Source: Cyanidioschyzon merolae
Taxonomy: Eukaryota
Strand: one strand, 5' to 3'
Length of the DNA: 64,000 nt
Assembly (NCBI GenBank): GCA_000091205.1
Contig: AP006495.2
In this document: positions 1 to 54,400 of the stretch, piece by piece
Numbering within the stretch: the stretch's first letter is position 1
Layout: each line of letters begins with the position of its first letter
Notes under the pieces: generated by a model
The model's database searches: none
What the model was told of the DNA's origin: nothing
What the model saw: only the letters and a program-made list of their open reading frames with translations
Made by a program: the position numbers and the translations under genes

Positions 1-1418
1 CCGGAGAGCGAATCAAGTGACGCGCAAGGGAAATGGGGGGAAACCCACTCTGTCCGCGGGAGTAGACACTCAGCGGTACCGTTGCACCGTACTGTGTGAT
101 CTTCCAGCGGACGCCCACAGAGACGTCACAAGTGTCGGCTCCGTGTGCGTCGCTGGCCCAAGACAGAGTGTTCAAAAGCAGAAGCGTCTCGACGACCTGA
201 ACTCGTCGACAGCCTCCTAGCGTGGTGTCCAGCGCACCAAGAACACCTAAGCGTTTACCGCCAGTTGGCGCCAAATGGAAGGCGCCAGCCGCGTGACGCC
301 CGCTCTCCGAGCGCGTGGTCGACGTGACGCGTCCAGCGCCTTGAGCTGGTACTTTTGGTTAGACGGAACCCACGAAATCGTTCACTTCACTCCGTATCAT
401 TTTAGGGAACCTGGTATTCGAGCACACGAAAAGTGCGAGAGCATCGATAGGGGTTAGCAGAGGGAATACGCCCGCGGCAGGTGGTTCTGCTCAAACCAAG
501 ATATCGATGCATGCCCCTGGGTCGACATTTCACGATGAGCATCTACCCTGATAGCCGGAGCACCGACGTGGCATTCGAGTATCGTCCGGTCGATGCACGG
601 TGTCACCAGGAGTGCTGGTATATCACCAAAATCCGGACAAGCGATGCATGCAAGCTGGGAGCCTCGTCTGGGTTTCTTTCTTGTGGAAACTCAATGCTTC
701 TCGCCGAAATTCTCTGGATGCGTGATAGCTGGAGGTAACCAGGCAAGGTGCTGCCTTTCGCCTCCAACTCTTGCATGCTCGACCGGTTCAAGACCGGCGT
801 TCGCCCAGCAATTCAGGGTACGTGGTTAAGCGGGAATCGTTTGCGGGATCATTTACACTTCAGTTTCATGCACAGAGAGGCACTGCGGGGCGGCCTGGGC
901 CTTGTCTGGCGACCGCGGCGACGCATCGTGCATCGCTGCTGCAGAACTCTCGTTCGACGGTGAACATGTTTCTGAGTCCATGGAGCCGCAATCCCTCCTA
1001 GAAGAATGGAGGACTCATCCTCGTTGAAAAGCAGCGCTCGCGCACCCCCGCGGCCTCCAAGCACGATTTCCAGCTCCGATTCCAGGCAAGCGTCCAGTAT
1101 TGCAGCAGGGATCCTCTACAGGCTGGGCATGAGGCGTGCCTACGAGTTCCCGATTCATTCTCTTGTTGGAGACGTTCTTGAAAGGGATCGAGCGACGGGC
1201 ACCTGCAGAGGAACTGCGTTCTATCCCGTGATTATCCCGAGCACTCGTCCGTTCAAACGAGTCGGGTAGGATGCATCGATCTCCATCGATAGAAAACATC
1301 GCTTCGGTTGCGAAGCGATCGACGAGCGCGTCGCTTGCGGACCTCGACTGCCATCTTGACTCCTGAGCAGCAACTCTATCCGAGACGACTTCGACGACGA
1401 GCGCTCGTTCGAGTTTTT

Positions 1419-2132
1419 ATGACAGGAAAGGCAGCTTGGCCAGTTTTGCTTTACGTGCCGAACTTGATTGGGTATGCGCGCATAGGGCTAGCTTTGGTCG
1501 CCTTCTGGAACGTACCGCACCCGGCAACGTTCCTGACGTTCTATACCACCGGGTTTCTGCTTGACGCTGCTGACGGCTACGCAGCACGCCTGCTCGGGCA
1601 GTCGTCGGCGTTTGGTGCTGTGCTTGACATGCTGACGGATCGATTCTCTACCGCTGGGTTGCTTCTTCTGATTGCTCTACAGGATCTAGCGAACGCTGGT
1701 TTGACATGCAACACGGTGACGTGCGCTCTGACAACGTGTTTTCGGGTTACTGTATGCGTTGCCCTGCTTATTTTGGATGCAGTGAGCCACTTTTGGCAAG
1801 TGTGTGCCGCAACCCTAGCCCGTGCGACCAGTCACAAAGCCGCAGGTCCCGGACGCCTGGTGAAGCTATATTATCGCCGAAGTGTGTTGACAACGGTATG
1901 CCTTTTTAGTGAGGTGTTTTTGTTGCTGCATTTCACGCGTGTTGCTGGTTGGTCCGCCAGGGTCGAAACTGCCAGTCATATGGAGCTGCTATGGATTGCC
2001 GCATACTACGGTTGCGCTATAGTATATGTGCTCAAACAGTTTATATCTTTGGCCCAGATCTGGAACGCCGCGGCGCTTCTCGAGCTCTCATGTTCTGGAT
2101 GCGGACACGTATCCGACGCAAAACGCCCTTAG
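1419..2132 (+). CDS. CDP-diacylglycerol--inositol 3-phosphatidyltransferase (phosphatidylinositol synthase), CDP-alcohol phosphatidyltransferase family
   Basis: The ORF 1308..2132 contains the CDP-alcohol phosphatidyltransferase signature D-G-x2-A-R-x8-G-x3-D-x3-D (DAADGYAARLLGQSSAFGAVLDMLTDR). The N-terminal stretch VLLYVPNLIGYARI resembles the start of plant/yeast PIS. The start was set to the internal Met (MTGKAAW...) at 1419 to give the typical ~235 aa length; the upstream in-frame 37 aa are Arg-rich and probably not coding. Confidence 0.72.
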   Translation: MTGKAAWPVLLYVPNLIGYARIGLALVAFWNVPHPATFLTFYTTGFLLDAADGYAARLLGQSSAFGAVLDMLTDRFSTAGLLLLIALQDLANAGLTCNTVTCALTTCFRVTVCVALLILDAVSHFWQVCAATLARATSHKAAGPGRLVKLYYRRSVLTTVCLFSEVFLLLHFTRVAGWSARVETASHMELLWIAAYYGCAIVYVLKQFISLAQIWNAAALLELSCSGCGHVSDAKRP

Positions 2133-2243
2133 CCATGAACTGCTCATCTGCGTACGAGTTTTGCTGACCGCGCAGTGCTGCTAGCGCGGGGCAGTGTATC
2201 CGGAGAACGTCACCGCTGAGCACTGAAACGACGACCTGGATAT

Positions 2244-2263
2244 TGTGTGTGTGTGTGTGTGTG
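2244..2263. repeat. (TG)10 microsatellite
   Basis: Direct reading: tgtgtgtgtgtgtgtgtgtg. Confidence 0.95.
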
Positions 2264-3645
2264 GATCCAATGCTCTGTGGACGGGCGTTCAACGAACATG
2301 CGAGTGCATCTCGTTGCGTGGAACGACGACCCTGGACCCAGAGAGGGATGGCAAGAATCACCTCTGCCGACTCGTGCATCCATTGAGACGTTATCCGGGG
2401 CCATGCGGTTTGCGTGAACGATTTGCTGGCGCCTTGCGATGTTCCGTAGTTTTTCATATAGAATAGGATCGTCTTTCCACAAGCATGCGCTTGCCGACCC
2501 CACTGCGTGACTCCAGATCATGCTGCTTGGATGAGCGCTTTACTTGCGCCTTTGCAACATTCCACAGTCCTTCGTACAGAACAGTATAACCCTGCCACAT
2601 GTATACATTGCGTATCCCAATACCCGCTCTGTTGCCTAACGTCGCTGGTGCGCCTACATGACGCGTCGTGTATGTATGTGTGTGTATGATTCCATGGCGA
2701 AATGCCTAGCGCGGACGCTCGGTGCCATTCGCATCGCTGCATTGGGAACTGGTTTACCGCGAAACACATTCTGTTTCAGACACAGGTTACCAGAGCGCGT
2801 GCCATAGCGCAGCCTCGAACAGTTCATAAATTTCGCTCTCTGAGGTCCCTCTTGCATACGATTCTACCCCGAACATCCAAGAGGTGTTTCATGCACGCAC
2901 AGGCCGAGTGAAGCCGCTGTGCGATGCTTGCCACATGCAGCGACCATCGAATATGGAAAGAAAGGTATCATCCGCTGTGTAAGGTAGATTGTCCAGTAGA
3001 ATCCGGTCGATGCGATGATGTTTGCGATGGATCCAAAGGCAATAAGGTCGAGAAGAGGCCGACACCGCTCAACTACTCTCCACAATGAAAGCGATGCTAT
3101 GCAGAGTGGCATCATCGCCTAGATGATCCACGATGCGCTTTTCAGAGCACCTGGCACTCCCGTATCCGCGTCATCGAAAGCGGAGCATTGCGCACAGGAC
3201 GCAAGGTGTCTGTCTCGGTACGTCATGATATTCACACATACCCAGGGGAATACGATTGGACTCCTCTGTCTTTGGTCACTGAAAATTTTACGCAGCGACT
3301 CCGTCCAGGGGCCCTCGTTCCATGCGCAAACGAGGCCTCATCGAGCACATCATCTGTGACCGAGTCGCGAAATAACAGCGAGTCCGATGCTCGCAACGCG
3401 GTACACAGGCGACGAGCCGTCCAGGGCTGAGCGCTCCCCTGCTCGGAGACCTCGGCGCTGGACCCCGACTGTCGCCACTGACTCTCTTCGTCCGCGTCTT
3501 TGTGACTTTCGTGCAGCCCGCGAAGCCCCTGACTGTGGTGCAGCAACGCGCTCACGTCGCCAGCAGTGATTGCATCACACGGATGCACATTGTCCACAGG
3601 GAATCACTGGAGCTTCAAGGAACTGCGCAATGAAAACATTAGGCT

Positions 3646-6855: not shown

Positions 6856-8284
6856 GCGCATAAGCGGTAGGTCGATGCCGGGCACATCCGGCACGCTGCA
6901 TCGCGGGTTGCATGCCCTTCGCATACCGCTCCAGGCTTGATCAGGGGCGATAACAGACGCTCCAGCGATGTATCCTTTGCGTGCTGCCTGATACGGAAAA
7001 CGACATCTTCAAGCAGCGCATGACGCTCAGACATGTTCTTGATTGAAGCTTTGACGAGAAGCGAAAACCTTTGGAACGATCCGCTTTCAATCCAAGGCCG
7101 TAAGGATATCCGATCTCGTACGATCCATACAGGCAAGGATCTGAATGGAGCGCATTTTCCGTTCGTTTATTTTCAACGGATCGCTCGAGGCGCTCCCGGG
7201 TCACGCAATGCGATGGTGTGTGCTGGCGCTGCTGCTGGGCGTTCGGCGTTGCTGTGCGTTTACGAGTTATCTGCGCCCCCACGGTGTGCATGTGATGAAC
7301 GCCCGAGACGAATGAGGCCGCCCACGCTGCTGCCGGGCTGCGTCAGCAAGCATCCCCAGTTTGGTACGATCAAGTGCCGGGACATCCATGCAGTCCTGCA
7401 TGTTACGCGTGCGGCCGTCTTATCGCCTGAGCTGGCGCACGTAAGCGCACTCGCAACGCAAGTAGCTCTGGGTAGCGTTCTGAGGCCTAGACGCAGCGTG
7501 CTCGAGATGTTGCACATCCGAATGCCGTTCGGGAGATGCGATACCGGCGCTGTGGACGGAACCCCGGTCCGCTATGGAGCATGCGGCAGCGACGGACATC
7601 GATACCTGCACTGGATAAAATATCCAGTATGTTCTCTGCATGCTTACCTGACGTGCATTGACTTCATCTCAGATACTTGTCTGCGCTGTGCATTGTCTGC
7701 TGTAAGCTACGACCTGGGTTTGTTCAACGCAGCGCAGGCATGCACGAACATACATGATGGTATTTGCATGTCGATTTTGCAAGGTTGCTTGACCTGCCAG
7801 CTCTGAACTCAACCGTAGCGCACTCCACGCTGCGAGATGCGTTTATGACCGCACCCTGTCCTTTGATCTGCCAAACGTTCCCAGACACGAAAAGCAACCC
7901 AGGCATGCTTCATCTCTCATGACTGTACGTCGATAGATGATGCACATACAATACTCGTATACACGGTGTCCGCTCAGGTGGAAGACGCTGCGGGTCTCTG
8001 CTCGTGGCGTTGCCGCAGCGGTCGGAGAGTGTCGATCGCGCGTTCCTGCATCCCCGCCGGCGCTACTTGATACACGATGTACACTGACAGAATGCGCTGA
8101 TATCAAGAGCGCAATCGGGGGTGCCTGTTCAGTGTGTAAAGGTTGTATAAAAAACGCGATGTGCGCTGTCGACTGGAGAGAACGTTGCGTGCGATTGTAA
8201 CTACAGCGCAGCATTCTCGACATTCACTACGTTCAAAAAAAGACAGAAAAAAAGCACTTGCTTTTTGCAACGGTCCCGAAAGAA

Positions 8285-8925
8285 CACAAACGAACCAGCA
8301 ACCAGCGACTCGATACCAATTTCGTTCCAGCTTCACGGTGAACATTGAACGGGGGCAAACGTCTCCGTATTTTCGAACGTTGATCCGCATGATGGAAGGT
8401 CGCACGACCCCGACGTGTCCGGCGGGCTCGTGCCTCACGCCTCCCTCAGTTACCGGGTGATGTGGCGACACCCGAGCGACTCATCTGCAACGATGTTTTT
8501 GTTTTTAGATGAGAAAGCGGTAGGCTGCATGCTAGGCGTTGCCCTGGTTGCAGTACGCTCCTGGCAGATCGCTTCGCGCTACCGCAAGCAGTGCGTCTCT
8601 CTCCGCAGCTTGCTGGCTCCCAGTATCATAAAGAGTCCCGATTCCGTATTGAATAAAAGACACTTCGAGCCAACGTCCTCAGTCGTATGCCAATCCCGTT
8701 CTATGCTCGTGCTGCACCCGCACCAGCTGTATAGGGGTTATTCAGGGGACAGCAAGGCAGGTACTCGCTGCGCGATAGAACGCACGAAACGACCAGTACA
8801 ACCTATATCACATATAGGTTATGGAACTTGAGCGTATGGCACAGCATGATGGACAATTCCATGAACCCTACTATCCATCCCGTGTCTGGGTTCCGTGGTC
8901 AATGGAAACATTTCGTCAAACATGA
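8285..8925. repeat. Dispersed ~640-bp repeat family B, copy 1
   Basis: Near-identical (>95%) to 49717..50360 and shows diverged similarity to 17990..18130. Conserved spurious ORFs (MSPHHPVTEGGVRHE...) appear in both copies. No recognisable coding domain, terminal inverted repeats or target-site duplication. Confidence 0.8.
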
Positions 8926-9131
8926 GAGAAAAAGCCGGTAGGCCTCAGCGTGCCACCAAGTCCCGTTTTTGAAATCCCTCATCGGGCGATCGCGCCAAAT
9001 CGATCGTACGTTGCGCGTTGGTGCGCTCTTGCGCTGTGCTGCGGCACGCTGCAGTACGCACGCTCTGGTGAACTGCTCTGTCGTGCTCGATATCGCAACG
9101 ATTGTGTTGACGGCACAACAAAGGTCTCTGA

Positions 9132-13049: not shown

Positions 13050-14864
13050 TTACAGGGGAATATTTCCATGTTTTTTCGGGGGCCATGGCTCCCGTAACGC
13101 CGCTGTCTCTTTGCTCGCTAGGAGGCTTAGCCCGTGTATGAGCCATCGACGCGTCAGTCTTGGTCGCACGACAGCATCGACGTAGCCACGCTGGAGTGCA
13201 ACCGAAACCGAGGATTCCTCGCTCGCTTCAGTGTCACCCGAAGTTTCGAGCGCATCCGTCGACGCAACTCGCCTGCGAAGGATCTGACTCGCTGCAGCCC
13301 TACCCATGACAGCGATATGGGCACAGGGCCAAGTTGCGTTCAGGTCGCCACGCAGGTGCTTGCTTGCCATGACACAGTACGCGCCACCGTATGCCTTACG
13401 CAAAATAATGGTCAGTTTCGGCACGGTTGCCTCCGTGTACGCATACAGCAACTTGGAGCCGTGTCGGATGATGCCGCCATGCTCTTGCTGCGTTCCGGGA
13501 AGGAAGCCTGGTACGTCAACCAGCGTCACGATCGGTATGCCGAATGCATCTGCAAAGCGCACAAACCGTGCTGCTTTGACGGCAGCGTCGGAATCGATTG
13601 CACCTGCTATGCACAGCGGTTGGTTGGCAATCAATGCCACACTGCGACCGTTCAGTCGAGCAAATGCAGTTAGCATGTTTGGAGCGAAATCGGTTTGAAT
13701 TTCTAGAAATTCTTCATCATCGACGAGGCGCATCAGAACATCCCGCATGTCGTATGGCGTATGCGCATCCGAGGGTACCAGTCGATCGAGCACGGGTTCT
13801 TCGCGGTCGCTGGGATCCTCGGTGACAACAACTTGGGGAGCGGGAACACGCGCATTCTGCGGCAGGTACGACAGCAGCTCACGGGCGAGTTGTATCACGG
13901 CAATATCGTCGTCGGCGTCTAAATGGGCAACGCCCGAGATACGACAGTGAACTGCGGCACCGCCAAGCGCCTCATCAGTTGTTTGTTCGCCTAGGGCAGC
14001 GTTCGTTACGCTGGGCCCCGTCACGAACATTCGTGCATGTCGTCTGCTCATGAGCACAAAGTCCGTGAGTGCTGGTGAGTACACTGCACCACCTGCACAC
14101 GGCCCGAGAATCAGGGAAAGCTGCGGGATGTATCCCGAAGCCAACACATTGCGTTTGAAGACCTCTGCGTAGCCTGCGAGCGAGCGCACCCCTTCCTGGA
14201 TGCGCGCTCCTCCGGAATCACAGAGAGCAACAACTGGCGCGCCGACCTCGATGGCCTTGTCGATGACCTTGCAGATCTTTGCGGCGTTGGCTTCGGAAAG
14301 AGAGCCACCAGCAACGGTGAAGTCCTGGCTGTAAACGAACACAGGTCGACCGTGAATCCGTCCAAAGCCCGACACAACGCCGTCGCCAGGAGTGCGATGT
14401 TTTCCAAGCGGATCCGAAGACGATGCATGGAGGGACTCTCTTGAACTGACCAGTCGATCAAGCTCTTGAAAAGAGCCACGATCCAGTAAAAGGTACAACC
14501 GCTCCCGAGCGGTTAGCTTTCCCTGGGCGTGCTGGCGGCGCACTCGAGCCCGGCCGCCTCCGCAAAGAGCGAACACTTCTTCCTGGTACGTCCGCTCGCC
14601 AACACCCAAGACAGACGCAAGTCCGCTCGCTACTATCTGGTCCGTGGCACCGGCTTCCGTCGAGGCAGAGTCCAGGTCCCTGTTCGTGGTTACGGAGCCG
14701 TTTACTGAACCACCCGTTCCAACGTCGTGCGGGTGTTCAGCGAAAGCGCCCCCGCCACCTGTACTGGACCTGGAGCACGCAGTGGACAGCCAAACGCGGA
14801 ACCGCTGTCGTACGGTTCTCCATGTGACGCTCTGCAGTCGCTGTGGCCAGGAGGTGTCTCGCAT
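13050..14864 (-). CDS. PCCB: Propionyl-CoA carboxylase beta chain (acyl-CoA carboxylase carboxyltransferase subunit), probably mitochondrial
   Basis: Near end-to-end similarity to PCCB. Matching stretches include QHAQGKLTARERLYLLLDRGSF, SQDFTVAGGSLSEANAAKICKV, SGGARIQEG, LGPCAGGAVYSPALTDF, FVRFADAFGIPIVTLVDVPGFLPGTQQEHGGIIRHGSKLLYAY, RKAYGGAY and the C-terminal KKHGNIPL. The start was placed at the first Met upstream of the conserved core (MRDTSWPQRL…, Arg/Ser-rich, consistent with a presequence). There is no stop codon between this Met and the upstream Fanzor-like ORF in the same frame. Confidence 0.85.
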   Translation of the reverse strand: MRDTSWPQRLQSVTWRTVRQRFRVWLSTACSRSSTGGGGAFAEHPHDVGTGGSVNGSVTTNRDLDSASTEAGATDQIVASGLASVLGVGERTYQEEVFALCGGGRARVRRQHAQGKLTARERLYLLLDRGSFQELDRLVSSRESLHASSSDPLGKHRTPGDGVVSGFGRIHGRPVFVYSQDFTVAGGSLSEANAAKICKVIDKAIEVGAPVVALCDSGGARIQEGVRSLAGYAEVFKRNVLASGYIPQLSLILGPCAGGAVYSPALTDFVLMSRRHARMFVTGPSVTNAALGEQTTDEALGGAAVHCRISGVAHLDADDDIAVIQLARELLSYLPQNARVPAPQVVVTEDPSDREEPVLDRLVPSDAHTPYDMRDVLMRLVDDEEFLEIQTDFAPNMLTAFARLNGRSVALIANQPLCIAGAIDSDAAVKAARFVRFADAFGIPIVTLVDVPGFLPGTQQEHGGIIRHGSKLLYAYTEATVPKLTIILRKAYGGAYCVMASKHLRGDLNATWPCAHIAVMGRAAASQILRRRVASTDALETSGDTEASEESSVSVALQRGYVDAVVRPRLTRRWLIHGLSLLASKETAALREPWPPKKHGNIPL

Positions 14865-16913
14865 GGCGCACACCGCTGAACGCCGTTCTAAAGTAGAACG
14901 TCGTCGGCGGTGTACAGTAGTAGCGACCGGTGCGCCTTGGACAACAAGTCGCCTACTGACGTGCAGACGCTTCCTAGGCTTTTTCGACCGGCCGCCTACT
15001 ACTGCTTCCAATTGTGTCTCATATAGTAAAACCTTAAGAGGTTGTCCAACAAAATTCTCTCGTGTCATCTCTGGAGGTCTGTTCTCCAACACCGCACATC
15101 TCCTTATATTGATGGCGGTAATAAAATCTCGGTTCACAAAATCCATCCGTTTCGTGCCGTTGGGAGTTGTACTTACTAATGCAAGCAGTCCACGAACTTT
15201 CGCTCTCCTTTCCATTTGCTCTTCCGTCAGCTGTCTATACTTTGCTATATCCTCAGGGCTCCTCTGGCACTTTTCCATCTCGACTCTCTGAAGTGTTAAC
15301 CCCTGTTCATGGTGTGTATACGATGTTCGAAACTCATCTACAGGTATCGTAACGAAACGCCTTGCACACTCCTTGTACATTCTTGTCGTTGGAGCTGGTG
15401 TAGTGCCTTTCTTGGGCACCCATCGTCCTGCTCCGTCCGCTACGACGAGCCTCTGACTTTCCTCCTCCTTCAGGGCGCTCAACTCATTCAAAAAATTCGC
15501 GAACGCCCGCTGCCTCCCACCGTATAGATTCATTCGCAGACGAGCCCACCGGGGCTTGGTATACTCCTCCCATAGCGCATCCCAGTGCGCCATGCGAACT
15601 TCCATGAATTTCCGGACAGCTTCAAAGTCCGCTCCTCGGCTCGTCACCTTACTCAAAGCTTCCAGGTGCTCTTTCATTCCTGGATTCCAAGTCTCGATTT
15701 TCTTCCTCGCATTCATGATTCCCGATTCTCGATAGTATATTGCTCTCGAGAACTTCAAAAGACGCATGTCTTTCTGACGCATGCCGCCGTCAGTGCCATC
15801 TTCCAAACGCTTGGGTACTGCGATGGTGATGATATTTGTGTTTCCGAGGTCCGCGCCAACGACAAAGTCGTTATCATGCACTTTCTGCGCGGCAGGATCC
15901 CCCTCCTTCTCATCTTTATGCATCGCCGCGCCAACGACAAAGTCGTTAGCTTGCACCTCCTGCACCACAGGATCCGCTTCCTTCCCATCTTCATCCTTCA
16001 TCACGTCAACGACAAGGTCGTTATCCTGCACCTCCTGCATCACAGCATCCGCCTCCTTCTTTTCTTCATGCTTCGTCACGGGCGCAGCCGAGGGCGGAAC
16101 TGGACGATCTTTCTTCAACCGCCGACAGAGTACACACGTGGCTACTCCATCGGTTTCGATCAACCCAGTGAATACCTTCTTCGTGCTCACTTTGAGACGT
16201 TTGAAATCGAAGCTGCTCATCCAGTACGTCTCCCGGTTTCCGCCGGTGAAGTCCTCCCTGCTTACATCGAACTCCGGACAGATATCCCTCATGATGCCGT
16301 AAAGGACGCCGGAGTCGATAGTCACAAAATGTGACTTGATCTTGCACATTGGAACCACGTTGAATCGCTTCCGCATTAGGACAGCCTTCCGTCTCTCCCA
16401 CTCTTCCTTTGTCTCTTCACTCAGCTTCATCTCCGCTTTGCGTTCGAGCTCTCGGTCCAGAAACACAAAATAGCGCAGGACGAGGCGATCGTATCTTTCC
16501 CTATCTTTTTTCAGCTCTGATATCTTGTCTGTTGGATTCGCCAGGCCCAGTATCGCACGATGCTCTTTAATAACCGCACGGATTACGGAATCCTCATTCA
16601 TGCTCTCGTTTGAAACCTTCTTCTCGACAAATTTGATCTCATCTTCATGCTTGCGATCTTTCATGATGCCATTGATAATCGCCCATTTTCCATTACGAGA
16701 GATGCCCGGGTATAGCGCAAACACTGCGCATATCATGAAACGTTCCAGGTTCATTGTAAAATGGTTCTTCACATTCGTGAGGTACTTCTTCGCCCCGAAG
16801 GTGTAAATATCCCAGTCAACCTTGTTTAGAGTACCCTCGAATCTGTAAAAGGGATGTTTTTCGTGGAGGGCGTGCACTCGCTCATCACTCGTCGAACATT
16901 TTTCCTGTGCCAT
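14865..16913 (-). CDS. TnpB/Fanzor-like RuvC-fold nuclease (eukaryotic homolog of the IS200/IS605 OrfB/TnpB RNA-guided nuclease), in frame with downstream PCCB
   Basis: The N-terminal ~660 aa of ORF 13050..16913 carry the three split-RuvC motifs in canonical order and spacing: Ruv[18 protein letters not shown]; Ruv[16 protein letters not shown]; Ruv[20 protein letters not shown] (the TnpB/Cas12 hallmark NxDxNAAxNI). The upstream region (…[29 protein letters not shown]…) resembles the TnpB WED/REC region. The CxxC…CxxC zinc finger normally found between RuvC-II and RuvC-III is absent. The segment is visibly AT-richer than flanking genes. Confidence 0.6.
15840..16080. repeat. Tandem repeat, ~76-bp unit x3, inside the Fanzor-like ORF (encodes three ~25-aa acidic repeats just before RuvC-I)
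   Basis: The DNA unit cgccgcgccaacgacaaagtcgtta… recurs at ~15851, ~15927 and ~16005. Protein repeats are [25 protein letters not shown] / [28 protein letters not shown] / [19 protein letters not shown]. Confidence 0.8.
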
Positions 16914-17989
16914 GCATGAAGTGGCGGTTGAATGTCTTGTTGAAAAATTCTCCCGGAACCTCGACTGTTTTGATGCCCATCACGTTGTCGTACATCTCCC
17001 ACGCCAAATGCATTATTCCTGAAGAAGCCTTTGTTATACTCATGGAGTAGCACGCGCCACGTTTTCTGATGGCCTCCCATGACTTTTGCTTGGAGGGATC
17101 CTTGAATTGGCGTAGAACAAATGCTTTCGCCACCATTTCTTCGTACTGTTGTCTTTCAAGTTGCATTTAGCGTCTGATTTCCAGTCTAAGGTCCCCCGTC
17201 TTTTCATGATTCTCTTGGCTTGGCGCTGTTTTTCTGGAAGCCGGCGACACTGGGCCTCCAGCATCGTCGACTTGCTTTGACATAACTTTTTTATTTTGTT
17301 CTGAAAAAGAACGCACTTTGAACGCCTCTCTTATAAAGTGCGAAAAAACACTCGAATACACTCACTTGAGCGTTGAAACCCCATTGAAATGAAAGACTGT
17401 CATATTGTGCGACTTCAGCACAGATCCAACCAGCACGTGAGACCCACACGTCAACGTATGGTCAGCATAGCGTTTCCATTCAACGCCGTGATACGCATTG
17501 TGTCGTGCATGCCAGATACGGAGCTGCGCGTATCGACCGCGCCATATAGAACAAACAACAGAAACTCACGACTACATACCAGTAAGATAACGATTTTTAC
17601 CCCCCCTCTGCAATGGACGTTAAAAGGGGGAGATGTTTCTATCATGTCGAATGTTTACCTCCTCGGCGGAAGGCCCCGCGAGCCCGACGAGTTTACCAGG
17701 CTCGTGCTTCATGCTCCCCCAGTGGCAGTTGCTATAATGAGACCCGAGCAACTCGTCCGCAATGTAATTTGTTCTTGGACTTGGATCGAGTAGCCTGCGT
17801 CTGGGCGTCGCGTTTGTCGTACTGGATTCCTCATATATCGCTTCACGCTTTTTGCAGGCAATTCCTTTGTCTCCACAAATTGCAGTCTCCCAGCATGATA
17901 ATGAATCCCGAACTCATGTCATTCGTAGCGTTCCTCGATCCGTCGCCCCCCCGTCGTATGGGAAATCCGTTCTTTCTCCATGATGCATC

Positions 17990-18130
17990 TGCACCAACGG
18001 TATAGCTGTTATTGCTGGTGCTCACGGCAGATAGTCGGCACACGATACAACGCACGAAACGACCAGTATATCCGAGAGGATATATAAGTAATGGAACTTG
18101 AAAGTAGGTTGCAGCAGCATTATGGACGCT
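17990..18130. repeat. Degenerate partial copy of repeat family B
   Basis: About 75% identity to the segment cagctgtataggggttattcagg…cgcacgaaacgaccagta…atggaacttga…atggac of copies at 8700-8860 and 50140-50300. Confidence 0.5.
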
Positions 18131-18146
18131 TTCCCGAAAACTAATC

Positions 18147-18277
18147 CCCATCCATCCATGCATCTATCTATCTACCTATCTATCTGTCTATCCATGCATG
18201 CATCTACCTATCTATCTGTCTATCCATGCATGCATCTATCTATCTATCTATCTATCTATCTGTCTATCTGTCCATCT
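18147..18277. repeat. (ATCT/ATCC/ATGC)n compound microsatellite
   Basis: Direct reading: ccatccatccatgcatctatctatctacctatctatctgtctatccatgcatgc… for ~130 bp. Confidence 0.9.
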
Positions 18278-18397
18278 GGAATCCATGGTCAATGTAAACG
18301 TCTTGGAATTGAAAAAAACAACACCAGCGGCGTCGTCGCTGCACGAATTCGCTGCCGTGACGCCGTCCAGCTGGCGACCTTTGTTTGCCGATCTTCT

Positions 18398-28735: not shown

Positions 28736-29699
28736 ACCAAACCGGTACTAGCGACTCTAAGCGTTGCAGCGGGTCGCAGGCCGGGTGCCGTCGTTCACTC
28801 AAAAAACGAAACAACCCGAGTTGCCTCGCCTGCAGAAAGCGTCCAACGCAGTCCGTGGCGAGTTTCTGCTCCCCGTTAGCGCGAGAAGACTGCGCGGAGC
28901 ACGCCCTGCGGCATACAGCGCCTCGTGGCGTCGTCGATGCCGCGCCAAACACACACGCATGCGCCGGCGCGTCTGTGATGATCCTGCAGCGCCAGTTTCG
29001 ATTCTCGTGTGCTGGCATCCGATTCTTGCTGTTTTTCTGGAATGAAACAGCGTCGACGTTGCGCATGGATGCCAGATGGCTGAATGCGTATTGAAATAAA
29101 TGAAACCGCTCATTATTATTCACGTTACTTCCGAGTTCCATGACCAGTTCTCGGATGTAACTGTCGTTATATACTTTTTATCGTGTGCCGAGTTCGTGCT
29201 TGGAACACCTGCCGTAGCGCCTAAACCGCTGGTGCCGATGCATCATAACGTGTGACCTGTTTTGGCACGCAAATGAGAGCGTCAGCTCGAGATGTCCTTC
29301 ATCCGACACATGGGAACAGCGACAGCATGCTGGGGAACGAAGCAGCGAGCTCATTGGGGTATTGTGAGATCGATGGATCGAGTCCGAGAGCTGCGCACGT
29401 CTCGCTGCTGCTGTTGGTAACCGTGAGAGAGGTCACGAGTGCGCTGGTGCGGGAACCCTGGGTGTGTATGTTTCGCTCTTTACACGGATACCTCTGTGCA
29501 TGAAACCGGAACAAGGCCCAAGGGTGCGTTAGAGCTATCGATCATCACTGGGAAGTTCGCTACAATGCGCTCTCGATGCACATATCGGAATGAAATGGAA
29601 CTGGTTGACCAAACTAGGTCAGGTATGCACACGAAGGTCTGGGCGTGTGCCCGTGATGATCAAGACCAGGTTTAGCGTGCTTTTCGGCTCTCTTGACTC

Positions 29700-49088: not shown

Positions 49089-49716
49089 AGCGGTCCGCGT
49101 AGACACTGCTCTAAAGCGACCTCGACTATGGCAACAGCAGTACCGTCCAGCGGAAACGTGTCGATGTCTACACCCGAGTACCGATAGCCCGACGGAAAAG
49201 CACACCAGGTGTCGCTGTCGCTGCATGGTAGCGTTCGGAGAGGCGACGCGTAGGCGCGCTTCCCGCTCGCCGCAGCGTCCGATGCATCGACAATGCGTCG
49301 AGGCATACCTGATCCGTTTCAACGATTACGTACTGTAGCATCATCAACTGGGACGTTGCTTGATGTTTTCTGACATTCCGTCCACGTTTGTGGTCGTGCA
49401 TGTCATGGTGCGGGTGCTAAGGTCACGAATTGACTCCCTCGAATAGAGATCGCGTAATCTTTTGGAGTATGGAAGGCGAGGTGTGGCGACGCTGCGGACG
49501 CGAAATCCTGATTCTCTTTATCATTGTTATCATCTAGAGAGGCTCTCGGTGCGTCCAGAAATCCCTAGTGAGATCGATGGATCTCGTATCGTATGATTCG
49601 ATGGTGACACCTCGACAGGATCCTGAGTCGTTTCACAAGACTTGCCCGAAAAGGTTATCGGCGCGTCCGAAAAATGCCCATCAGACTGAGCTTGTACGAG
49701 CCAGTCAAGTGCCGAG

Positions 49717-50360
49717 CAAACAGAAACGAACCGGCAGCCAGCGACTCGATACCAATTTCGTTCCAGCTTCACGGTGAACATTGAACGGGGGCAAACGTCT
49801 CCGTATTTTCGAACGTTGATCCGCATGATGGAAGGTCGCACGACCCGGACGTGTCCGGCGCGCTCGTGCCTCACGCCTCCCTCAGTTACCGGGTGATGTG
49901 GCGACACCTGAGCGACTCATCTGCAACGATGTTTTTGTTTTTAGATGAGAAAGCGGTAGGCTGCATGCTAGGCGTTGCCCTGGTTGCAGTACGCTCCTAG
50001 CAGATCGCTTCGCGCTACCGCAAGCAGTGCGTCTCTCTCCGCAGCTTGCTGGCTCCCAGTATCATAAAGAGTCCCGATTCCGTATTGAATAAAAGACACT
50101 TCGAGCCAACGTCTTCTCAGTCGTATGCCAATCCCGTTCTATGCTCGTGCTGCACCCGCACCAGCTGTACAGGGTTTATTCAGGGGACAGCAAGGCAGGT
50201 ACTCGCTGCGCGATAGAACGCACGAAACGACCAGTACAACCTATATCACATATAGGTTATGGAACTTGAGCGTATGGCACAGCATGATGGACAATTCCAT
50301 GAACCCTACTATCCATTCCGTGTCTGGGTTCCGTGGTCAATGGAAACATTTCGTCAAACA
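49717..50360. repeat. Dispersed ~640-bp repeat family B, copy 2
   Basis: See copy 1 at 8285..8925. It sits immediately upstream of, and contributes the spurious 5' part of ORF 50125.. to, the SRP receptor beta gene. Confidence 0.8.
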
Positions 50361-50625
50361 AGAAAATCAGACTGATATCTCGTACAATGAAGTACCTCAG
50401 TGGCGCGCGCTGCTTCGTTTCAGACTTGGCAGGCAGGTTCTGCACACGGACGCTCATTGGCTCGATTTCGCGCCCACTGCGGACAGAAAGACTGGTGTGG
50501 ACCTTGCGGAGCGTGGAGGCGTCTTCCGGTCAACTGTCGTCTCTTGGTTGGTCTCTGTGAGCCGCTGTGCACTTAGGAGGCTCTGGTCCGACGCAACAAT
50601 CTTCAAGGGTAAAGGCCAACTACGG

Positions 50626-51459: not shown

Positions 51460-54400
51460 CGGCACTCGATAACGACACCTGCGGCAAATGCACCCGAGAC
51501 CTCTAGCATGCGCCTGGGAGGCGTATTTGGCCACTTGTTTCGTAGAAGATGGAGACTGAAAATCTAATTGGAGATTCATCGAACAGGGATGGAAGCAAGT
51601 GTAGGCGTTTCGAGGACGCTAGCCTGTTGCGCACATCGATAGCGGTGGCACGAATGAGCGCTGCTCGGAAAGATGCTGCACGAGGCCTGCGTACTCCATG
51701 AGAATATGCATGTAGTAGTTTACATCGGAACCGTTTGGTTTGCTCCATGCCAGAGCTGCTTCTTGAAACAAACTGCATAGTCTAAGGCATGTATAACCGC
51801 TCCAAATGAAACTAGTGCATGATGTCTGGTATGCAAACGCCATTTTCTGCACATCTAACGGAAGCAACGGTGGAGGAATTGTTGGCAAGTTTCGCGCCTG
51901 TGAAGCTAAGCACGACGTGGCGGTCGGATACCTGTGAAAGTTGCGGGTTGCGCATCGTGACAATCGGCAATGCCAGCCGTTTCTACGGGCCAGTCGCATG
52001 TTCTCACTGGCTTCAGCGCTGCTGCAGTCAATGGGCGAACACGAGTCGACGACAACCATATCTGAGCAACGTGGACGCCGCCGCACAAGCTGAGTGCCAT
52101 GTCTTCTCGATTCTGGGCTCAACGGAGCGAACACGTTCCGCGACCATTACGTAAATGAATACCGACGTACAGACGCCTCCTGGCCTGTTTTGACCGGCTG
52201 ACTGCTATCGGTTTCAGTTTATACAGGCACACTTCGAGTCGGAGAGGCAACGCCGCAAAGTCGGCTTGCGTCAGCTCCGCGAGTTCCGTCTTCAGCACCA
52301 CATATCGTCTGCTATAGATGGCGGCGTTAAAGTCTCGGTTCACGAACTCCGTGCGTCAATTGTCGCTAGTTGAACTCACCAATGAAAGGATTCCTCGAAT
52401 TTGTGCCTCCTGTGCAACTACAGTTTCGTCGCGGTCCCGTAGGGCAAACGCTTTTTCTGGCCTGCCTCCCCTCGTCTTCTTCGTCACTCGCTCTTCATCG
52501 CTCCATGATTGGCGAAAAGGATATGTTTTTGATTTTTCTCCGGCAGCCGGCGGCACCGGCCCTCGAGGATCCCCGGATTCCGTGTCCATACCTTTTCCTT
52601 GGATTTTTTAAAATTGAAAATGAACGCACTTGTTTATGCCGTTAGTTAAGAACCCCCCAGCGTGGACAAGAACTTGCAGATGAAAGCGGTCATGTGCCCC
52701 GGTGTATCATCGTGTGCCGAACGCTTCAGCGATTCGCCCAGAGCAGTGATCATTCGTTTCAGGATAGAAAGCGCTCGTTCCATGGTGATGAATCCTGATG
52801 GCTATGGAGATACGATAAAAAGATCTATCCCGATAGGATCCGCAAAAGCTCGAATGCAAGGGGAATGGTGAAATACCGCGTTATCCAGTAGAGGGACGTC
52901 GCCAAGCGTCATGGAAAAGTCTTCAATGATTCGGCAGAGTGGTTGGTACTGTTGAATGAACCTCATGTAGGTGCAAAACTGAGGCCCCCAAATCAATCCA
53001 CTCCATCTAGAACAGATGATCTAGTCGTCCTCTTCGAGTTTGATCGTACATGCAACGGGCGCCCTGCACCGAGAATATCCACATACGCTCGGACCGTATC
53101 ATCCGAAGCACGTCTCATCGACTGAAAAAACAAACCAAAGTCCTTGTGCTTCGTGTTGATCGCTGAGTCCCAGGAACGCTGTCGTTCCGATTTCCGTGGA
53201 AGATGGCGTGCGCGAACTAGAACTTTAGCGACTGTATCGCAGCGGCTTCAGGATTCCACGAAAAAGCTGTTGAGAAACAGAGACGCCCATGCAGACTACC
53301 ATCTTCACCTTTGCCTCCCGTACAGTGTGATCAACGGGTCATTTTCTACCATTGAACGCAAACTGTCATTGAGAATACCGTGTTTTTGGTACAAAGCGCG
53401 CATACTTGTCTCTTTTAGGGCTCCTCAACCATTAGAGAACTCTGATATGACTGACATGCAAGAGGAATGCGGTCCTCCTTGCACCGTTCAGTAAAGAATT
53501 GATCCCACAGGCAATTCCTCTACGATCTATAAAATACATTGCATCGTGATCTCGATCTCATGCTTTATAATGCGAAAAAGCAATCGATTCCACGCTGCGG
53601 GAGTGGAACGGAATTGAGTTGAACGACTGCAATACATGCCATGCGATGTAAACCTGAAAGAGAAAACATCGCCTGTCTATGGTATATATAGAAGAACACA
53701 TATCCCAAGATATTTACAGGGAGCATGAAGCTTGGCAAGTCAAACACGAGCGCGCAGTCGCTACAGGCAGAGCGGACACGCGCACACATGCACCCGTCCG
53801 CCAGACGTGAGCTGTAGTTGCCGTCCCAGACGCTCTCTGGCCGCCTCTTACACGCACCTACAGTCTTGTTCGCTGCAAGGGAACTAGACGCGCTGCCAGC
53901 ACTACCGTAGAAGGCAGGATTCACCACCGCTTCACTTGGATGATGCGACGAAACGTCTCCACCGCGCGCCGTCACGCTTACGCAAGCTCCTGCTCAGCTG
54001 ACCCGGTTTCCTTGGTTCCGCCGGACGACCTCTTTCAGGCCTTCACGAAAGTCCTGCATCCACCTTGACCAGTGTACCGTTCTTTCTCGAACGCGCTCTA
54101 GGAGCTCCGTCGAAGTCTCCGCCCGGAGCGGCAGTGAGCGCGAACGTTCCGCCAGCTCTCGAAACGTGGTATGCGTCCGCAGCGCAAACCGCTGGAACAG
54201 CGCGCTATTTGCAAGGCCTTTGACCACGACTTCGTTCGCTAGCCAGTGGGCAATCCGTGCAATGATATCACCGCGCATCTGGCCCAGTGCTTTCCCTTCT
54301 GGTCAGTACGAGTCGTTTTTCGAACGGGACGCAGCACAGTACTGCACAACGCCAAGCATGCCACGCGTGTCGATTCGCTTCGGTGCGCGCACCATCGCAC

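Follow-up and report, generated by a model that had tools for sequence, protein, structure and literature searches.

What is the AT-richer island that lies upstream of the propionyl-CoA carboxylase beta gene (PCCB) in this 64,000-nt stretch of Cyanidioschyzon merolae DNA (contig AP006495.2; hereafter, the window), and where does it begin and end? The original prediction had described an island at 14,865-17,400 with a decayed series of open reading frames (ORFs), and had read it as part of a larger, degraded element, perhaps a pseudogenised transposon remnant, with a boundary near 17.4 kb. We are highly confident that the island is a full-length but decayed copy of a known Fanzor1 element, CMe-1A, occupying positions 14,879-18,311 on the minus strand. 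As a system it is nothing new, being one member of an ordinary and already described repeat family. CMe-1A was reported from C. merolae as a family of ~150 copies, each ~80% identical to a consensus of ~3 kb, with no terminal inverted repeats (TIRs), the target-site duplication (TSD) undetermined and the class unknown (Bao & Jurka 2013, Mob DNA 4:12, PMC3627910). In the same description, the 5' 635 bp of the element correspond to a separate repeat of ~70 copies, TE-N2_CMe (PMC3627910), and the supplementary table lists CMe-1A as a 3,169-bp element with a single-exon protein of 734 aa, entered as '734 (1)' (PMC3627910 supplement). Four ORFs of the window are exact matches to proteins of C. merolae 10D (BAM80992.1, BAM80993.1, BAM80995.1 and BAM80996.1), and the exact protein matches include CMM127C, CMM129C, CMM134C and PCCB (BAM80995.1); on these protein sequences the window is the nuclear genome in which the family was first described, and the present copy was presumably already counted among the ~150 in 2013.

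The consensus sequence (from supplementary file 2 of Bao & Jurka 2013) aligned to the window in two parts: its positions 43-3169 matched 18153-14881 with 77.1% identity, and positions 7-49 matched 18305-18263 with 83.7% identity. The interruption is a microsatellite, which splits the alignment by an expansion of roughly 110 bp. Apart from this, the copy follows the consensus co-linearly over its full length, with a TE-N2-like head, a leader, the 734-codon Fanzor1 ORF and a 3' non-coding end. The element as a whole and its 5' parts are as follows:

14879..18311, minus strand: CMe-1A copy of 3,433 bp (consensus 3,169 bp), delimited by the consensus alignment and the 3' ends of paralogues, the 5' end being extrapolated

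17553..18311, minus strand: TE-N2_CMe-like 5' head, consensus positions 1-636, 65% identical to two solo repeats in the window

18162..18277, no strand: (GATA/GATG)n microsatellite with a 32-nt higher-order unit, detected with TRF and expanded within the 5' end between consensus positions ~43 and 49

17284..17552, minus strand: non-coding leader, consensus 637-905, present in nearly all paralogues and starting with the palindrome GGCGCGGTCGATACGCGC at 17543-17526

A scan of metagenome contigs for paralogues recovered 71 loci with 70-85% identity, and comparison with them fixed the 3' end sharply: in ~35-50 independent copies the similarity stops at a single base, 14879, after GGCGTT, so that conservation extends two bases (TT) past the published CMe-1A 3' end. 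The 5' end, at about 18,311, was extrapolated from the consensus alignment and is probably accurate to within a few nucleotides. We looked in public assemblies for an empty site among variants of the neighbouring genes CMM134C and PCCB, where every contig either carries the insertion or breaks in the microsatellite, and no pre-insertion allele came to light; the exact junctions, chiefly the 5' one, are therefore deduced indirectly. All population contigs recovered contain the insertion. The original prediction had called for terminal repeats or a TSD to be sought by comparison with paralogues: the shared 3' end at 14879 emerged, whereas no TIRs joining the two termini of the copy were detected, nor any TSD, the flanks GTGTTGTTTTTTT and CAGCGGTGTGCG having no common direct repeat.

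The element is thus larger than its intact-looking ORF, as had been suspected, and spans 14,879-18,311 in the consensus alignment, which moves the boundary proposed near 17.4 kb to about 18,311. That the copy is instead a truncated remnant ending near 17.4 kb, with ordinary intergenic DNA from 17.4 to 18.4 kb, seems to us very unlikely. Most paralogues do lose co-linearity with the window at ~17.40-17.54 kb, and recognisable coding sequence ends at 17,283, but the consensus alignment continues to 18,153 and resumes at 18,263-18,305, at least six independent loci share head plus core over ~750 nt upstream of 17,400, and the low-G+C (guanine plus cytosine) tract runs to ~18.3 kb. The break at ~17.5 kb reflects alternative 5' heads and not the end of the window copy, which is full length at 3,433 bp and decayed by mutation rather than truncation. 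Regardless of the type of 5' head, the core common to all copies begins ~140 nt upstream of 17400, and this core (leader, ORF and 3' end, from ~17,540) sits behind at least three different heads of ~600-800 nt (loci L003-L073). The first type is TE-N2-like in direct orientation, and is found in the window copy and at least five other loci; the second is the 'GGACACGTGTCCTTCATCGATCGG' type; in the third, part of the TE-N2 head is inverted; and several upstream sequences are unique. A naive comparison of paralogues therefore places the boundary near 17.4-17.5 kb. The alternative heads suggest modular capture or read-through mobilisation.

Within the head, 17,553-18,153 aligns to two stretches, 8,279-8,880 and 49,775-50,316, that belong to solo TE-N2_CMe-like repeats of 655 bp. 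These lie at 8,273-8,925 and 49,709-50,363, both on the minus strand and both intergenic, are 97.4% identical to one another and ~73% identical to consensus 4-636, and are each preceded by a T-rich stretch and terminated by …TTCGTTT(G/C)TGTT. Their near-identity suggests activity much more recent than that of the Fanzor copy. The microsatellite differs in length among population contigs, and many metagenome contigs end there (loci L074-L079); contig L075, in which it is joined to the end of a PolA-like gene, is probably an assembly chimera.

The second question concerns the reading frames of the island. The lesions and landmarks of the coding part are these:

17281..17283, minus strand: ancestral ATG of the Fanzor1 ORF, taken from the start of the tblastn match, MSKQVDDAGGPVSPA against MEKEVEDPGGPVSPA

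17167..17169, minus strand: in-frame TAA nonsense codon in a basic N-terminal segment resembling a nuclear localisation signal, from the ORF list and tblastn, common to contig L046

16888..16897, minus strand: site of a 1-nt insertion at about 16,892, GTTCGACGAG against consensus GTCG-AGGAG, in a MAFFT alignment of window, consensus, L046 and L010

15854..16080, minus strand: 75-bp tandem repeat, three copies against one in the consensus, encoding 25-aa repeats just upstream of RuvC-I, detected with TRF and seen as a 50-aa insertion in the tblastn alignment

14937..14939, minus strand: ancestral stop codon site, CAA in the window but TAG in most copies and in the consensus, from the consensus ORF end at nt 3108-3110 and a codon-by-codon comparison

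Two minus-strand ORFs, 17167..17361 (64 aa, GTG start) and 16885..17166 (93 aa), abut, divided by a TAA at 17169-17167 with an ATG (17166-17164) directly after it. The second ends in TGA at 16887-16885 and overlaps the long ORF (ATG 16913-16911), which lies in another frame, by 29 nt. This layout of an upstream pair, one TAA and one frameshift had been correctly described, except that the overlap had been given as 28 nt. When the 734-aa CMe-1 consensus protein was searched against the window with tblastn, its residues 1-131 matched 17283-16900 with 59.5% identity and one internal stop, and residues 133-734 matched 16895-14943 in the next frame with 73.9% identity. In addition, the longest homologue (P0001, 752 aa) has an N-terminal extension that matches both upstream ORFs of the window residue for residue; the decayed ORF series is therefore one gene in pieces. 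The proposal that the upstream ORFs are the broken N-terminus of a longer Fanzor-type ORF, interrupted by one nonsense and one frameshift mutation, is confirmed by the tblastn search, and the repaired N-terminus matches Fanzor1 N-termini, namely those of the CMe-1 protein and P0001. The start codon of the decayed gene is the ATG at 17283-17281 and not the GTG at 17361. Both lesions recur, as the identical TAA and the identical inserted base, in a metagenome contig from another sample that is 96.7% identical (L046), and are therefore genuine, neither sequencing errors nor new.

One might suppose that the TAA and the frameshift fall within small introns and that the gene is intact after splicing, since Fanzor genes of other eukaryotes have gained introns (Jiang et al. 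2023, PMC10530073). We consider this highly improbable: the family consensus ORF is one uninterrupted exon, the flanks of both lesions are co-linear with it codon for codon, so that splicing there would take out conserved residues, and one inserted base accounts for the frameshift. Moreover, the stop codon is lost too, and in its N-terminal part the copy retains no more than 59.5% identity to the consensus.

This loss of the stop codon is a third lesion, which the earlier reading had not included. With TAG changed to CAA, the frame is open through the end of the element and into PCCB, and the last 604 residues of the long ORF are a carboxyltransferase (PF01039, E=2.8e-164). The resulting frame of 1,287 codons (13050..16913) arose by accident, through loss of the stop in DNA that is GC-rich. 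To the possibility that it encodes a real, domesticated Fanzor-carboxyltransferase fusion protein we attach hardly any weight. It has no stop codon between 16,913 and 13,050, and metagenome gene callers gave N-terminally extended PCCB products of 680-875 aa; but the joint is the 3' non-coding hairpin region, open only through the TAG to CAA change, sister populations (L082 and L083) have a stop upstream (AGG to TAG), and the Fanzor part of the long frame is without its first 131 residues. PCCB itself is annotated from an ATG at 14,864 with its own mitochondrial presequence, and long accidental frames are common in DNA of 55-60% G+C. The full span of the single-exon ~734-aa ORF is accordingly present in the window copy, with a TAA, a frameshift and a lost stop, and the copy is unable to make the Fanzor1 protein. 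As had been anticipated, it is a pseudogenised transposon: co-linear with the CMe-1A consensus, with an ORF broken by nonsense and frameshift.

Two further observations concern the coding part. The 25-aa repeat varies among paralogues (P0001, P0005 and P0007), with one copy in the consensus, three in the window and four to six in others, and the 75-bp unit duplicates 'QEVQDNDxVVxA', the lead-in to the catalytic aspartate. Locus L010, a 2,398-nt metagenome contig that corresponds to window 14861-17157, has the same insertion site as the window copy. Over its final ~320 nt, flank included, it matches the window with 98.8% identity, whereas its N-terminal coding part is much nearer to the consensus than that of the window copy and its disabling lesions differ; such a pattern may reflect gene conversion among the copies, or else one insertion with divergent alleles.

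What, then, did the gene encode before it decayed? The ~670 N-terminal residues of the long ORF gave no match in Pfam, NCBIfam or a single-sequence phmmer search of PDB, and no nuclease family was found in Pfam and NCBIfam scans of the long ORF and its paralogues, the sole result being a non-significant Cas12f1-like TNB domain (E=0.23). The region has 59 homologues in public assemblies, mostly 65-90% identical. The precomputed Pfam label is DUF8286, a weak assignment. A profile of 14 homologues (A2), searched with hmmsearch against PDB, matched SpuFz1 (8gkh) with E=2.7e-6 over 348 positions, in an alignment that crosses the RuvC-I, DE[FY]xTS and RD motifs. An AlphaFold model of P0001 was built from the 14 sequences (mean predicted local distance difference test score, pLDDT, of 55) and served for fold search, not for active-site geometry; with Foldseek its seven best matches were all Fanzor1 structures (SpuFz, PpFz and GtFz; E from 4e-8 to 5e-6), the next match having E=0.35. 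The profile match and the fold matches thus point to Fanzor1. The positions that would form the active site, numbered on the window, are:

15849..15851, minus strand: RuvC-I aspartate codon in GADLG, aligned to SpuFz1 VIDPNKRDI (consensus GADPGNTNI)

15333..15335, minus strand: alternative RuvC-II glutamate codon in PVDEFRTS, aligned to SpuFz1 LDEYKTS

15126..15128, minus strand: RuvC-III aspartate codon, consensus NRDFNAAINI, from the SpuFz1 profile alignment and the CMe-1 consensus

All three codons of this RuvC triad with relocated glutamate (D, E and D) are kept in the window copy, and its canonical RuvC-II position reads VVADGAG, without a glutamate. The relocated RuvC-II glutamate is a feature of Fanzors (PMC10530073, PMC3627910). 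Two points count against the Fanzor1 assignment. The RuvC half of the AlphaFold model is poor, with pLDDT below 50, and the C4 zinc finger that belongs to the canonical Fanzor/TnpB motif, between [TS][TS] and RD (PMC3627910), is not evident in the CMe-1 protein, whose consensus has only HH-x3-C-x9-C between EFRTS and NRD. The window copy has a single cysteine and no CxxC pairs in this interval, and the distant homologues P0055-P0057 are likewise without CxxC pairs.

Base composition was the reason for singling out the island. The drop in G+C is real, although it extends, like the element, to ~18.31 kb rather than to 17,400: G+C is 45-53% across 15.0-18.4 kb and 55-62% in both flanks. The element (14,879-18,311) has 48.8% G+C against a window mean of 55.5%, with a standard deviation of 2.2-2.4% for stretches of element length. 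It is the lowest of 1,212 sliding windows of equal length, so that the predicted discontinuity coincides with the minimum of the window, and none of the non-overlapping stretches of this length falls below 51.0%. The low G+C is the composition of CMe-1A coding and leader sequence and of the microsatellite, not a sign of recent foreign origin. Recently acquired viral or horizontally transferred DNA would fit the distinct composition, and Fanzors are frequent in giant viruses (PMC3627910, PMC10530073), but a family of ~150 copies, ~20% off its consensus, indicates an old resident amplification, the insertion is fixed in all population contigs recovered, and there are no other viral genes in the flanks; we regard such an acquisition as extremely unlikely.

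The insertion lies between two host genes, CMM134C and PCCB, in what was formerly a divergent intergenic region of ~240 bp; the element fills 3,433 of the 3,675 nt between their start codons. The gene on its 3' side lies outside the element:

13050..14864, minus strand: host gene for the mitochondrial propionyl-CoA carboxylase beta (PCCB) precursor, 604 aa, exact match to BAM80995.1 / XP_005537031.1, with PF01039

Since the ATG of PCCB starts 14 nt past the 3' end of the element, transcription of this gene must now, we infer, begin inside the element or traverse it. The remaining effect of the dead copy is likely to be passive, in supplying sequence directly upstream of the PCCB start codon. 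Two other traces of the family were seen elsewhere in the window: a deleted CMe-1A relic on the minus strand at 52161-52437 and 52524-52631 (consensus 2811-3092 at 70% and 869-971 at 79%), and an isolated fragment of the 5' head on the plus strand at 29042-29309 (consensus 3-273, 69%).

The 3' end raises a further question, that of a guide RNA. In other species, Fanzor1 proteins are RNA-guided RuvC endonucleases that take a guide RNA from the 3' region and recognise a motif 5' of the target (PMC10530073, PMC10432273). The two features at issue are:

14879..14936, minus strand: 3' non-coding end of 58 nt, candidate omega/fRNA scaffold and transposon right end, from an alignment of 35 independent copies

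14859..14878, minus strand: first 20 nt of the 3' flank, CAGCGGTGTGCGCCATGCGA, containing the PCCB start codon; would-be guide, by analogy with Fanzor/TnpB architecture (PMC10530073)

The non-coding end opens with a GC stem at 14936-14922, on which the near-invariant TACTACTGTACAC follows at 14922-14910; the terminal hairpin, of 10 bp, lies at 14903-14881 and is followed by TT, and the sequence finishes …GAACGGCGTT at 14,879. The terminal hairpin is predicted in most of the 35 copies, in three sequence variants that differ by register shifts and not by compensatory pairs. A scan of 14.6-18.5 kb against Rfam gave no match.

By analogy with characterised Fanzor1 and TnpB, intact members of the family would encode an RNA-guided RuvC endonuclease whose guide RNA may come from the element 3' end, the hairpin-rich last 60-200 nt serving as scaffold and the flank past GGCGTT as guide. 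Such a nuclease might cut matching DNA beside a short motif and so help the element to persist or to home, and transposition would have to depend on enzymes acting in trans, given that the element lacks a transposase gene, TIRs and a TSD. Several results speak against this scheme. In a hand-drawn three-helix structure 89% of cells pair, yet covariation is not above that of shuffles, RNAalifold on the 35 right ends returned only four uninformative pairs, and conservation of the 3' non-coding part (0.783) is no better than that of third codon positions (0.806). The role of the 3' end as RNA scaffold is drawn from analogy only, and RNA transcription, guide RNA and nuclease activity are all carried over to the CMe-1A family from other systems. 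The 3' hairpins could equally be DNA signals for transposition. As a separate observation, a perfect 13-nt inverted match (GTGCGCCATGCGA) links 14859-14871, in the PCCB start region and at the same time in the would-be guide, with 15585-15597, inside the Fanzor ORF; chance alone would yield ~0.1 matches of this kind in 3.6 kb, and this one is probably a coincidence.

Is the family as a whole as decayed as this copy? A near-full open frame was found in only one (L001) of ~45 non-redundant copies, the remaining ~44 of 45 being pseudogenes. Identity to the consensus at codon positions 1, 2 and 3 is 0.868, 0.893 and 0.806, respectively, a pattern from which we conclude that selection acted on the protein while the family spread. 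This agrees with the argument of Bao & Jurka that the protein matters to the element (PMC3627910).

The ends of the copies offered some leads on insertion, for which the 2013 description could not define target sites (PMC3627910). On the 5' side, one feature stands directly next to the element:

18312..18318, minus strand: run of seven T (T7) in the 5' flank directly upstream of the element, from the comparison of 16 independent 5' flanks

In the last 10 nt of these 16 flanks T makes up 66% of the bases, compared with 20% further out, and 13 of the 16 contain TTTT, often as GAT-Tn-C; the junctions compared were window 18312-18320, 8926-8935 and 50364-50372 and loci L023, L033, L041, L032, L055, L052 and L049, among others. 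The T-rich motif is either the true terminus or an insertion or target-adjacent motif. On the 3' side, flanks are often GT-rich (GATGGTGC, GTTGGTGCG, TGTTGT…), with GGTG/TGTTGT recurring in the first ~10-25 nt after GGCGTT (loci L045, L061, L013, L039, L056, L014, L023, L017, L028, L050/L052, L069 and L018), and some run into (GGT)n, (GCT)n or (GGCGGT)n arrays. Position-by-position conservation of these bases is too weak to assign them to the element, and they could represent a target preference, a terminus that extends slightly further but is poorly conserved, or repeats for which the end of the element was the seed. Furthermore, in a comparison of the 3' flanks of 31-36 independent copies, the right end faces a co-oriented nearest long ORF in 24 of 31 (binomial p=0.003); when the ORFs considered are those of 300 aa or more, the figure is 19 of 24. 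How far the 'first ATG' lies from the right end was dropped as a measure, because the flank motif GATGGTG itself holds an ATG and frames run long. We treat the junction motif and the orientation bias as leads and not as results.

A single scenario could accommodate these leads, although we think it more probably wrong than right by a wide measure: CMe-1A and TE-N2 may be mobilised by a single-strand mechanism, Helitron2-like or IS200/605-like, inserting on the 3' side of a T-rich motif (~GAT-T4-9-C), which would at the same time be the target-adjacent motif of the Fanzor, with insertions made or kept by preference where the right end, and with it the guide, points into the 5' end of a host gene. 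The hairpins near both ends of the Fanzor core, the T-rich 5' junction, the lack of TIR and TSD, and the alternative heads are reminiscent of such transposons. No transposase gene turned up for CMe-1A, for which no genome-wide search was made. Were the scenario true, the family would be a mobile supplier of upstream or 5' untranslated sequence in a very compact genome, with guides aimed at gene starts, and the alternative heads would have arisen when various short elements captured the Fanzor core by one-ended (read-through) events.

The finding itself is of little weight: the copy is a decayed one, and its repeat family was published from the same genome in 2013. For annotation, it is useful to recognise the 1,287-aa 'nuclease-carboxylase' frame as an artefact of a lost stop. 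The alga itself is amenable to genetic work and undergoes homologous recombination. With ~150 copies of one Fanzor1 family and past selection at the protein level, C. merolae is a sensible choice for studying how Fanzors serve their transposons in a eukaryote. The target motif and transposition mechanism of the family could be approached from three features: the sharply defined 3' end, the T-richness of the 5' junction and the preferred orientation towards the starts of host genes.

How does the copy compare with known systems? The nearest is CMe-1A itself, in its consensus form, which comes from the same genome and has the same order of parts, 77% nucleotide and 60-74% protein identity and likewise no TIR; the window copy differs from it in the TAA, the +1 frameshift, the lost stop, two extra 75-bp repeats and the ~110-bp microsatellite. 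TE-N2_CMe is homologous to the first ~640 bp of the element and ends where the Fanzor leader begins, its own 3' end (…GGTTCGTTTCTGTT) being unlike that of the Fanzor element. The characterised Fanzor1 proteins SpuFz1 (8GKH/9CEU-9CEZ), GtFz1 (9CER) and PpFz1 (9CF0/9CF1) are similar in profile and fold at ~14% sequence identity. They have in common with CMe-1A the RuvC-I aspartate, the relocated glutamate (DE[FY][RK]TS) and the RuvC-III RD, as well as an ORF followed by a structured non-coding 3' end (predicted here for CMe-1A) that abuts the transposon end. Unlike them, CMe-1A has no clear CxxC zinc finger and no associated transposase or TIR, and is known from sequence alone. Among algae, the Chlamydomonas reinhardtii elements CRe-1/2/3, which are associated with Helitron2 (PMC3627910), are likewise high-copy Fanzor1 families without TIRs, with a variable 5' part, a sharp, hairpin-bearing 3' end and insertion beside T-rich sequence (TTTT); CMe-1A differs in having no known Helitron Rep/helicase partner or shared Helitron ends, and a Helitron-like mechanism is for this family hypothetical. 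Finally, CMe-1A likely shares its working principle with the bacterial TnpB-omegaRNA systems of IS200/IS605 (e.g. ISDra2), in which a RuvC nuclease is guided by a right-end RNA and the left junction of an insertion has the sequence of the target motif; sub-terminal hairpins and the lack of TIR and TSD are common to both. CMe-1A is set apart from them by the absence of TnpA, and by its eukaryotic nuclear setting, rearranged catalytic glutamate, much larger protein and basic N-terminal extension.

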